From positions 12,115 through 44,114 of the forward strand of contig CAZPUN010000012.1 in assembly GCA_964589775.1 (NCBI GenBank): DNA of 32,000 bases. The letters are read 5' to 3'. Under the pieces are notes generated by a model, which ran no database searches, was not told the origin of the DNA, and worked only from the letters and a program-made list of their open reading frames with translations. Source of the stretch: an uncultured archaeon. Lineage in GTDB: Archaea; Asgardarchaeota; Thorarchaeia; Thorarchaeales; CAZPUN01. A program made the translations under genes and the position numbers. Below are positions 1,400 through 26,677 of the stretch, one piece after another (position 1 is the stretch's first letter; every line of letters starts with the position of its first letter).

Positions 1400-1480
1400 A
1401 GATGACGAGTGATGAAATAAAGACCCCTATGAGAATTTAAAATTCGATGATTAAGATCTTGAGTATTGAACTCGTCATCT
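1400..1480 (+). ncRNA. Box C/D guide sRNA (predicted target Cm34 of tRNA-Leu CAA)
   Basis: Perfect 11-bp terminal inverted repeat AGATGACGAGT/ACTCGTCATCT. Box C GTGATGA (1409-1415), 13-nt guide, D' ATGA (1429-1432), hairpin GAATT-TAA-AATTC, C' CGATGA (1445-1450), 15-nt guide TTAAGATCTTGAGTA, D TTGA (1466-1469). Upstream TATA and downstream T-run. Confidence 0.75.
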
Positions 1481-11102: not shown

Positions 11103-11205
11103 GGGTTCGTAGTCTAGATACTCGTATGATATATACGAGCTAGAATGGTATGATACGTGCCCGGGGCGCACGTGGTCGGGAGTTCAAATCTCCCCGGACC
11201 CACCA
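11103..11205 (+). tRNA. tRNA-Pro(GGG) with 26-nt D-loop intron (11120-11145), CCA encoded
   Basis: Acceptor GGGTTCG/CGGACCC, anticodon arm CGTGC-CCGGGGC-GCACG, T arm GGGAG-TTCAAAT-CTCCC. The insert in the D loop forms CTAG-ATA-CTCGTAT/ATACGAG-CTAG-AAT (BHB-like). Removing it gives a normal D loop AGATTGGTA. Confidence 0.92.
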
Positions 11206-11864: not shown

Positions 11865-13007
11865 GTGATGGAAAAATTGAAGCGAAGAAAAGAACAAACA
11901 GTGGACAAAACACGTACAACAGTCGAGAATAAACCAGAAGAAAAATACGAAACATATGAAAATGTACCCATGGCCGAAAAAGTTGTAATTGCACCAATTG
12001 GTTATCCAATAAAAATGAAGGGTGAATATGAATCAGATGAGATCGAAATAGGTGATCCGGAGTTATTTCAAACATATGCAATAGAACAGTGGAATGGTAT
12101 TGTAGTTAATGAAGATACATTTCTTTTTGATCGCTTTGCAGTTCCAGATTTTGCATTTAAAGTAATAAAAGCTGTTCCTGAAAGAAGTCGAATAGGGTCT
12201 TCAACAAAGATAGTAGTTAAAAAAGTCAAACGCAAAATTAAGAAAACACATTATAATGTTTCATTCGATGAAATAATTGGACATGAAAAAGTTAAAGAAA
12301 AAGCAAAGTTAATAATCGAATATTTAAAAAATCCGAAAATATTTGGAGAATGGGGACCTCATGCAGTTCTCTTTTACGGAGAGCCAGGTACAGGAAAAAC
12401 AATGATGGCGAAAGCAATTGCATCAGCAGTAAAAGCTCCAATATTTTTCGTAAAAGCAACTGATCTAATAGGAAATCATGTGGGTGACGGCTCAAGAAGA
12501 ATTTCAGGATTGTTTAAAAAAGCTATAGAACAAACACCATCAATTGTTTTTATAGACGAATTAGATGCGATAGGATTGACACGAAACTTTCAATCCATTA
12601 GAGGCGATGTATCAGAAGTAGTTACTGCATTATTATCGGCAATTGATATGATCAAAGAAATCCCAGGACTTGTTGTAATCGGAACTACAAATGCACCACA
12701 TCTACTAGATAAAGCATTGCTAAGTAGATTTGAAACTCAGTTTAAATTTGGGTTACCTAATTACAATGAACGCCTCAAAATGCTAAAGATGTACGGCAAA
12801 AGGCTTCCAATAAAACCAACATTTAGCTTTGAAAGAATTGCAAAATTGACAAAGGACTTTTCAGGAAGAGATATCAAAGAACGCCTATTAAAAACGGCAT
12901 TACATATCGCAATAATTCGAAACTTAAAAGAAATAGATGACAAATTAATTGATGAAGTACTGAAGGATTTAGGTAAAAATCCAAGAAAAGGACAATATTA
13001 TATTTAG
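11865..13007 (+). CDS. Archaeal AAA+ ATPase (COG1223/MJ1494-like)
   Basis: N-terminal P.GYP...DPELFQ.YA.EQW.G..V....LFD....PDFAFKV domain, Walker A GEPGTGKT, pore loop HVGDG, FIDELDA, RGDVSEVV.ALL, SRFE, SGRDIKE. Confidence 0.85.
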   Translation: MMEKLKRRKEQTVDKTRTTVENKPEEKYETYENVPMAEKVVIAPIGYPIKMKGEYESDEIEIGDPELFQTYAIEQWNGIVVNEDTFLFDRFAVPDFAFKVIKAVPERSRIGSSTKIVVKKVKRKIKKTHYNVSFDEIIGHEKVKEKAKLIIEYLKNPKIFGEWGPHAVLFYGEPGTGKTMMAKAIASAVKAPIFFVKATDLIGNHVGDGSRRISGLFKKAIEQTPSIVFIDELDAIGLTRNFQSIRGDVSEVVTALLSAIDMIKEIPGLVVIGTTNAPHLLDKALLSRFETQFKFGLPNYNERLKMLKMYGKRLPIKPTFSFERIAKLTKDFSGRDIKERLLKTALHIAIIRNLKEIDDKLIDEVLKDLGKNPRKGQYYI

Positions 13008-21474: not shown

Positions 21475-21578
21475 GCCAGGGTATCCAAGCGGACTGATTT
21501 AATCCCGCAATACGGAGCCGGTCTTGAGAACCGGTGCCCCTTGTGGGCTCGGGTGTTCGAATCACCCCCCTGGCGCCA
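21475..21578 (+). tRNA. tRNA-Ser(TGA) with 16-nt D-loop intron (21495-21510), CCA encoded
   Basis: Acceptor GCCAGGG/CCCTGGC, anticodon arm CCGGT-CTTGAGA-ACCGG, long variable arm GCCC-CTTGT-GGGC, T arm GGGTG-TTCGAAT-CACCC, discriminator G. BHB-like GCGG-ACT-GAT/ATC-CCGC-AAT in the D loop. Confidence 0.92.

Positions 21579-25187: not shown

Positions 25188-26677
<1,490 letters not shown>

Follow-up and report, generated by a model that had tools for sequence, protein, structure and literature searches.

A conserved box C/D RNA of an Asgard archaeon, predicted to guide wobble methylation of tRNA-Leu(CAA) and probably anchored to tRNA introns

What is the 81-nucleotide (nt) inverted repeat between a tRNA gene and a cdc6/orc1 gene in an uncultured Asgard archaeon of the order Thorarchaeales? 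It occupies positions 1400-1480 (+ strand) of a 32,000-nt stretch of contig CAZPUN010000012.1 (forward-strand positions 12,115 to 44,114), which we call the window, and had been put forward as a candidate box C/D guide RNA for ribose methylation of the wobble cytidine (Cm34) of tRNA-Leu(CAA). Comparison with the rest of the genome and with related genomes extends this proposal: the element is probably the gene of a conserved box C/D guide RNA, which is predicted to direct Cm34 on tRNA-Leu(CAA) and would act on the precursor tRNA (pre-tRNA) with its second guide, the D' arm, as an intron anchor. The metagenome-derived genome comprises 2.16 Mb in 64 contigs, with a G+C content of 35%; a search for sequencing runs turned up two, both of DNA and one of them from a hydrothermal-vent metagenome that is a possible source, and no RNA run.

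Read along the + strand, the element consists of a stem strand, GAU-GA, a spacer, AUGA, a hairpin, GAU-GA, a second spacer, UUGA and the other stem strand. Positions 1400-1410 (AGATGACGAGT) are the exact reverse complement of 1470-1480 (ACTCGTCATCT), giving the perfect terminal stem of 11 base pairs (bp) that the original prediction had described around the two sets of boxes and guides. The folding energy of the 81 nt is -19.1 kcal/mol, compared with -10.3 ± 2.5 kcal/mol for shuffled sequences (z = -3.5), and none of 200 shuffles folded as stably. The putative promoter that the original prediction had noted about 25-30 nt upstream and the T-run downstream are both present, and a TATA-like TTTAAGG or CTTAAGG stands at a matching distance in most of 29 homologous loci. 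The parts of the locus are as follows.

1370-1377, + strand: TATA-like element TTATAAAA, 23-30 nt upstream of the 5' stem; putative promoter
1400-1480, + strand: gene for the box C/D guide small RNA (sRNA), 81 nt, with its presumed ends set by the stem
1400-1410, + strand: 5' strand of the terminal stem (C stem of kink-turn, or K-turn, 1), perfectly paired with 1470-1480
1411-1418, + strand: bulged strand of K-turn 1; bulge G1411, A1412, U1413; sheared pairs via G1414 and A1415
1416 and 1417, + strand: A1416 and A1417, positions 3b and 4b of K-turn 1; the canonical box C is 1412-1418 (AUGAAAU)
1419-1428, + strand: D' guide spacer AAAGACCCCU; core GACCCC at 1422-1427; N+5 base C1424
1429-1432, + strand: box D' (AUGA); G1431 and A1432 form sheared pairs with A1450 and G1449; NUGA is kept in homologues
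1433-1445, + strand: internal hairpin GAAUU-UAA-AAUUC, 5 bp (C stem of K-turn 2)
1446-1453, + strand: bulged strand of K-turn 2; bulge G1446, A1447, U1448; sheared pairs via G1449 and A1450
1447-1453, + strand: box C' in the canonical register (AUGAUUA); its AUGA is invariant in nearly all homologues
1454-1465, + strand: D guide spacer AGAUCUUGAGUA, 12 nt; 1454-1464 pair with tRNA positions 41-31, and G1461 (N+5) is opposite nucleotide 34
1466-1469, + strand: box D (UUGA), of which the family conserves only GA
1470-1480, + strand: 3' strand of the terminal stem, merging into a T-run (1480-1483), likely a terminator

The terminal box C/D motif thus has the stem, the 3-nt bulge, the sheared pairs G1414.A1469 and A1415.G1468, and the pairs A1416-U1467 and A1417-U1466 of a K-turn. 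The internal C'/D' motif, in which AUGA, the hairpin 1433-1445 and GAU-GA (1446-1450) come together, builds another K-turn on the same plan. Of the two spacers, that of D has exactly 12 nt and that of D' has 10 nt here and 11 nt in a sister family of genomes described below.

What would such an RNA guide? The core of the D spacer, 1454-1464 (AGATCTTGAGT), complements ACTCAAGATCT, and apart from the guide itself the 2.16-Mb genome contains two copies of this 11-mer: one at positions 31-41 (ACUCAAGAUCU) of tRNA-Leu(CAA), whose anticodon arm reads GCAGA-CUCAAGA-UCUGC, and one in coding DNA on contig C39, which is a chance match. The genome's sole tRNA-Leu(CAA) gene contains an intron and lies on another contig (C23:2668-2782, - strand), so that the original prediction, which had relied on the typical sequence of this tRNA and placed the target outside the window, named the right 11 nucleotides. 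The fifth base counted back from UUGA (1466-1469) is G1461, opposite C34, as the N+5 rule demands and as had been foreseen. A guide should pair over at least ~9 bp with a stable RNA and place a sensible nucleotide at N+5; here there are 11 pairs with C34 at N+5, and tRNA-Leu(CAA) is the top target of the D guide among the 37 tRNA genes and the 16S and 23S rRNAs. Eleven or more contiguous Watson-Crick pairs anywhere in this 8.8-kb set were found for 0.15-0.3% of shuffled or random 12-nt guides, a rate computed before requiring N+5 to fall on the wobble base.

The two runner-up targets also have nucleotide 34 at N+5. tRNA-Leu(UAA), with which the guide was to be compared according to the original prediction, forms ten Watson-Crick pairs plus a G.U pair at U34, and the elongator-type tRNA-Met(CAU) forms nine pairs with mismatches at 36/37. 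The predicted duplex energies are -16.5 kcal/mol for Leu(CAA), -14.3 kcal/mol for Leu(UAA) and -9.9 kcal/mol for Met; the corresponding values for two further leucine tRNAs, Leu(UAG) and Leu(CAG), are -12.7 and -11.2 kcal/mol. Judged from these pairings, tRNA-Leu(UAA) and tRNA-Met(CAU) are possible additional substrates. A crude scan of the genome for separate guides against tRNA-Met or tRNA-Leu(UAA) returned none that was convincing, which is no proof of absence. The proteins of the ribonucleoprotein (RNP) invoked in the original prediction are all encoded in the genome: fibrillarin (PF01269, 319 bits) and Nop5 (PF01798, 218 bits) by adjoining genes on C17, and L7Ae (PF01248, 106 bits) by a gene on C57. 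A second gene of the L7Ae/L30e family is present in the window (25215-25487, - strand; PF01248, 74 bits).

Is the RNA conserved? BLAST found homologues downstream of a tRNA in genomes of the same order, and a covariance model (R1) was built from six of them. The model scores the window RNA at 81.6 bits (E about 1e-20), its single match in the genome, and finds exactly one copy in 92 of the 151 Asgard genomes sampled, including all 27 of the sister family. The sRNA gene is flanked by tRNA-Gly(CCC) (1270-1344) on one side and by the orc1/cdc6 gene (1582-2793), which begins ~100 nt downstream of the element, on the other; the order tRNA-Gly(CCC), sRNA, cdc6 is kept in all 27 sister-family loci, in which the cdc6 genes are 50-55% identical and a TATA-like TTTAAGG stands ~30 nt upstream of the sRNA. 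A search of genome contigs with the Cdc6 protein for a related locus gave no match.

Conservation and pairing were counted in an alignment of 38 homologues. The D-guide core GAUCUUGAGU is invariant in all 38, the D' core (U/A)GACCC(C) is nearly invariant across the Asgard family, and both guides are conserved while the surrounding spacers vary. The K-turn GA dinucleotides are near-invariant (both present in ~35 of the 38); UGA 1413-1415 is kept and 1411-1412 are variable, and three of the most distant rows (L174, L175 and L176) deviate or are misaligned at one of the GA sites. The sequences of the terminal stem are entirely different between families (GGCGAG/CUCGCC, ACACAAG/CUUGUGU, UUGCAGAC/GUCUGCA and others). 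All eight modelled terminal-stem pairs nevertheless show double-sided changes, and 95.6% of their cells are paired, a value matched by none of 500 shuffles. Over 13 pairs, 82% of cells are paired, compared with 58% in shuffles; the covariation score is 0.64, compared with 0.21 in shuffles (equalled by none of 500) and 0.07-0.14 in slid controls. The internal hairpin is replaced by others in homologues, such as GUC/GAC and AUCCU/AGGAU, and its closing pair covaries (GC 24, AU 5, CG 5, UA 1, UG 1). G.U pairs in the stems of homologues establish that the RNA is the + strand. Conservation in relatives had been named as a test of the original prediction, and the GA dinucleotides of the boxes, both guides and the stem all bear it out.

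In an Rfam search of the window only tRNAs pass the gathering threshold, and the best box C/D match of the RNA is snoZ196, whose 21 bits (E = 1.4) fall well short of its threshold of 55. The sRNA family is therefore without an entry in Rfam 15. Two variants found with the model deserve mention. Three loci of one family (L159, L161 and L170 of f16) have three extra bases (GAG) between GAUCUUGAGU and box D (UUGA), which by the N+5 rule would shift the predicted methylation from C34 to C32 of tRNA-Leu(CAA). A weak match in another genome (L178; G152:C14:241044-241111) is not the same RNA but another box C/D-like one; its guide, CAUCUCUGGAGAA, complements the anticodon loop of tRNA-Trp, and it may be a paralogous wobble guide.

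The alignment also settles the register of box C. The overall order of boxes and guides in the original prediction stands, but its box C is 3 nt off. A box C at 1409-1415 (GUGAUGA), with G1411.A and A1412.G as sheared pairs and no bulge, was rejected because bases 1411-1412 vary in homologues: the first GA of UGAUGA is replaced in AAUGA, AGUGA and UAUGA. The sheared G.A pairs thus use the second GA, and box C lies 3 nt further 3', at the position listed above. The pair that closes the terminal stem, U1410-A1470, covaries (CG 16, UA 9, UG 9, GC 2), as does the 4b.4n pair of K-turn 1 (UA 14, GC 9, AU 3, CG 2). Box D reads ACGA, AGGA, AAGA, AUGA, CUGA or UUGA in homologues, and its first base covaries with position 4b of box C. 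By this pattern of substitution, the C/D and C'/D' motifs are both true K-turns.

Does the D' guide have a target, too? Among mature tRNAs and rRNAs we found no convincing one. The best matches were tRNA-Gln(UUG) (8 bp including a G.U pair, with G31 at N+5) and the 23S rRNA sequence GGGGUCU (7 bp); the latter was rejected, because the site lacks conservation in four relatives, whose guides do not match it either. Nine- and ten-nucleotide complements of the D' guide elsewhere in the genome lie in coding DNA and are chance matches. The Rfam large-subunit match to the 23S rRNA gene itself (C23:99368-103215) falls into two pieces, the second spanning ~880 nt beyond the model, which suggests that this gene carries an intron or insertion.

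Standard tools (ARAGORN, Rfam) miss many intron-containing tRNAs in this genome, so we used a custom scan for a T-arm and matching acceptor ends. It recovered tRNA-Leu(UAA) (C13:58588-58726), the elongator-type tRNA-Met(CAU) (C13:62046-62176) and tRNA-Trp (C13:57992-58193, - strand), the last with a long intron that holds box C/D sequences. An ARAGORN call of 'tRNA-Leu(caa)' on C9 turned out to be a different tRNA. The scan also caught two D-loop-intron tRNA genes in the window, at 11103-11205 and 21475-21578 (both + strand; apparently tRNA-Pro(GGG) and tRNA-Ser(UGA)), which the Rfam gathering search and default ARAGORN had missed.

With this gene set in hand, the complement of the D' core GACCCC, GGGGUC, is found in the introns of exactly three of the 37 tRNA genes, Leu(CAA), Leu(UAA) and Met(CAU), and these three are the top three matches of the D guide. 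The hexamer, which we call the tag, is the sole 6-mer common to the three introns and has only 250 copies in the whole genome, both strands counted; none of 200,000 shuffles yielded a shared 6-mer complementary to the D' spacer. Both Leu introns are in the D-loop, and their tags precede the D target by 15 and 19 nt; the Met intron interrupts the anticodon stem in its 3' half, and its tag follows the D target by 9 nt. Each duplex between D' guide and tag has a predicted energy of about -13 kcal/mol. This relation, together with the likely extra substrates Leu(UAA) and Met, had escaped the original prediction.

How far does the relation between guide and tag extend? In most genomes of the sister family GGGGUCA, complementary to their guide UGACCCC, is present in the introns of tRNA-Leu(UAA) and tRNA-Trp(CCA); their tRNA-Leu(CAA) has the full D-guide match, yet is without the tag. 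BLAST and pattern searches for tRNA-Leu(CAA) of relatives gave mainly other leucine isoacceptors, and the three that were recovered (G020, G007 and G016) carry no tag, their introns being different or absent. In a Jordarchaeia genome (G074) the tRNA-Met intron contains UGGGGUCAGAU, 11 consecutive bases that all pair with the D' spacer. Nine D' pairs plus a G.U pair are formed with the Met intron of G061 and with the D-loop intron of tRNA-Leu(UAA) of G045, seven pairs with an intron of G161, and in G087 the D' guide GACCCUU is opposite AAGGGUC. The homologous sRNA of Nitrososphaerales has the D' guide CUAGCCCU, and AGGGCUAG occurs in the D-loop intron of tRNA-Gln(CUG) in three of ten genomes, a guide/tag pair with three compensating differences from the Asgard pair. 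A match to GGGTCATG in G110 and G141 was discarded, since it is an exon-intron junction of tRNA-Pro(CGG) and not analogous. Across lineages the relation is well supported by these complementary sequences but not universal, given the negative results for the deviant guides and for Nitrosopumilales reported below, and this genome, with 6-7 bp, is at its weak end. Several introns, for example those of tRNA-Leu(CAA) in G020 (L093) and of tRNA-Met in the present genome, contain a box-C-like string (GAUGAG/CUGAUGAGAC) just 3' of the tag site, which hints at a K-turn or an L7Ae site inside the intron.

Taken together, these results lead us to the following model. The sRNA would be transcribed independently from its own promoter and fold into two K-turns, the C/D motif closed by the 11-bp terminal stem and the C'/D' motif by the 5-bp hairpin, on both of which L7Ae, Nop5 and fibrillarin would assemble. 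The D guide is predicted to pair with positions 31-41 of tRNA-Leu(CAA), placing C34 at N+5 for conversion to Cm34 by fibrillarin, while the D' core would pair with the GGGGUC tag in the introns of the three pre-tRNAs. The RNP would then act on the unspliced pre-tRNA. We picture the D' arm mainly as a second anchor or specificity element, which would add about -13 kcal/mol and help the guide to compete with the anticodon stem; guiding a functional methylation is probably not its main role. A broader reading is that, in Asgard archaea and at least some Nitrososphaerales, the intron tags are address labels that recruit one shared box C/D RNP through its D' arm to several unspliced pre-tRNAs. We hold this only tentatively, finding it slightly easier to doubt than to accept.

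Several observations weigh against the model. Boxes D (UUGA) and D' (AUGA) depart from CUGA, and no Rfam family attains its threshold for the RNA. The G.U pair at the target nucleotide of tRNA-Leu(UAA) and the adjacent mismatches in tRNA-Met may block methylation, which would leave Leu(CAA) as the only safe target. The D' duplex has just 6-7 bp in this genome, its spacer is 10 nt long instead of the usual 12, and opposite the base that follows GGGGUC this guide has A where relatives have U. The two Leu introns share one site and may have a common origin, which makes the three tags less than fully independent events. Finally, for three lineages whose D' guides deviate (G063, G121 and G080), searches for compensatory changes found no matching intron, and the D' guide of Nitrosopumilales (UAUCCCU) had no tRNA-intron match in ten genomes.

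Part of this would be accounted for if the RNA were a genuine Cm34 guide for tRNA-Leu(CAA) only, with a D' guide that is an orphan or has some other target, the shared GGGGUC being due to intron descent, transposition or splicing structure. The short D' duplex and spacer, the identical D-loop site of the Leu introns and the four negative searches for matching introns in other lineages agree with this, and tRNA-targeting sRNAs of Pyrobaculum typically have one guide without a target (PMC7994747). We nevertheless consider it unlikely. The tag is the only shared 6-mer and is missing from the other 34 tRNA genes, and the genome as a whole holds only 250 copies; the Met intron is at a different site from the Leu introns; and the D' core is as well conserved across the phylum as the D guide. 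Other families add 9-11 bp pairings with introns of tRNA-Met and tRNA-Leu(UAA), and Nitrososphaerales a distinct complementary pair.

That the two arms find their complements within a single pre-tRNA, and that the target of D' is in RNA to be discarded, could also mean that the RNP is mainly a chaperone or processing factor, which holds anticodon arm and intron for folding or splicing and for which methylation is secondary or absent; the degenerate D and D' boxes and the short D' spacer fit such a role. Nucleotide 34 of these tRNAs, however, belongs to the documented target set of box C/D sRNAs in Pyrococcus (PMC7994747). The N+5 register on that nucleotide is exact here and in nearly all homologues, and the guide is also present where tRNA-Leu(CAA) has no intron (e.g. 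in G016), and we regard this role as quite improbable. Archaeal origins often flank cdc6 and hold inverted repeats, and the present one lies ~100 nt upstream of cdc6/orc1, which raises the question of whether there is an RNA gene at all or just a DNA element of the cdc6/orc1 promoter or of an adjacent replication origin. This we find barely credible: the stems change wholly between families yet stay paired, including G.U pairs that are meaningful only as + strand RNA, the K-turn GA dinucleotides and an antisense element matching a tRNA exactly are foreign to origin boxes, and the motif is found away from cdc6 in other phyla.

How does the RNA compare with known wobble guides? A scan for ATGA-N4-GATCTTGAGT-N3-GA in one genome per prokaryotic species gave at least 120 records. 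Eighty of them were looked at closely, and these are nearly all archaeal (Thermococcus, Thermoplasmatota, Micrarchaeota, Nitrososphaerota, Bathyarchaeia, Korarchaeota and several Asgard classes), with a few bacterial chance matches. The C'-N4-GAUCUUGAGU-N3-GA motif is thus common to the Asgard RNA, Thermococcus and many phyla, while the remaining sequence is unrelated. In Pyrococcus, nucleotide 34 is the target of four sRNAs, whose substrates are tRNA-Leu(CAA), Leu(UAA), Met and Trp (PMC7994747). The guide of Pyrococcus and Thermococcus shares with the Asgard RNA its target, C34 of tRNA-Leu(CAA), its antisense core and the RNP proteins; records from Thermococcus and other Thermococcaceae read AUGAUGA-(C/G)GAUCUUGAGUG-CUGA, in the same N+5 register. 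The Thermococcus loci, in contrast, are compact (~58 nt): they lack a terminal stem, their boxes are the canonical AUGAUGA/CUGA and their D' guide is unrelated, whereas the Asgard RNA has 70-88 nt, a 7-11-bp terminal stem, a hairpin-closed second K-turn, degenerate NNGA D boxes and a conserved D' guide that matches tRNA introns. One Asgard guide may serve several tRNAs, while Pyrococcus has one sRNA per tRNA.

As the C'-plus-D-guide motif is present in Thermococcus and many archaeal phyla, the basic function would be that of the known Pyrococcus-type Cm34 guide, and on this comparison the window RNA is the Asgard form of a widespread guide. The target loop is itself conserved, so that convergence on the antisense core is possible alongside common descent with the Thermococcus guide. 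The original prediction that this lineage uses RNA-guided wobble methylation agrees with the fit between guide and target; it is not special to the lineage, because the motif is pan-archaeal. What is new beyond the known Cm34 guide, as read from sequence, is the double-K-turn build, which resembles a small nucleolar RNA (snoRNA), and the pairing of the D' guide with intron tags.

Coupling to unspliced precursors has been described before. In sR-tMet of Haloferax volcanii a single guide reportedly spans exon and intron. This trans-acting box C/D sRNA is described as directing Cm34 on intron-containing elongator pre-tRNA-Met (Joardar et al. 2011, as cited in PMC4033218), and in both respects, a trans-acting guide and Cm34 on an intron-containing pre-tRNA, the Asgard RNA would be alike. 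It differs in having a separate second guide, a tag 9-19 nt from the anticodon-loop target, and several intron positions in several tRNAs. In Euryarchaeota the intron of pre-tRNA-Trp encodes a box C/D guide (Pyrococcus sR50, Haloferax; PMC7994747, PMC4033218). There, too, wobble ribose methylation is coupled to the unspliced precursor, but the guide is physically within its substrate; in the Asgard proposal the guide has a gene of its own and the intron bears just a tag of 6-11 nt. The tRNA-Trp(CCA) of the present genome (C13:57992-58193, - strand) has an intron of ~100 nt that, like the euryarchaeal guide, contains UGAUGA boxes and a complement of the anticodon loop of the same tRNA; the sister family has a short GGGGUCA-tagged intron in its place. 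The mature 5' end of this genome's tRNA-Trp also reads GGGGUC.

Eukaryotes ribose-methylate nucleotide 34 (Nm34) with the protein enzymes Trm7/FTSJ1 (PMC4033218), and a snoRNA-guided Cm34 on elongator tRNA-Met is attributed to Vitali and Kiss (2019, as cited in PMC7994747). These routes, mostly protein-only, share with the Asgard guide the modified position and in part the tRNAs (Leu-UAA, Trp, Met). The build of the Asgard RNA, with its terminal stem and two real K-turns, is nearer to a eukaryotic snoRNA than to the Thermococcus sRNA. No homology to a particular snoRNA was found in Rfam, where the best box C/D match is the one given above.

Directly 3' of the sRNA, the window contains a short element (1490-1504, ATTTTCGGATATCTC) that the sister family keeps as ATTACTTTCGG-NA-CCTC. 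Its place is between the sRNA and the promoter of cdc6; an Orc1/Cdc6 box (of an origin or autoregulatory) and a 3' trailer signal are both possible roles.

A box C/D guide for Cm34 of tRNA-Leu(CAA) is a textbook archaeal device, here unannotated and absent from Rfam. Its Asgard version is a single-copy, syntenic marker in the archaea closest to eukaryotes, and should be useful for annotation and for tracing the evolution of the snoRNP. If the pairing of the D' guide with the tag is functional, it would give a concrete reason for archaeal tRNA introns at unusual places, namely a selectable intron function, and would explain how one guide serves several tRNAs. In yeast the modification of position 34 of tRNA-Leu(CAA) is intron-dependent, which would then be a parallel. 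Should the tags indeed be address labels, wobble ribose methylation would require the intron. One degenerate D guide could then serve Leu(CAA), Leu(UAA) and Met (in other lineages also Trp or Gln) and still ignore untagged look-alikes such as Leu(UAG) and Leu(CAG).

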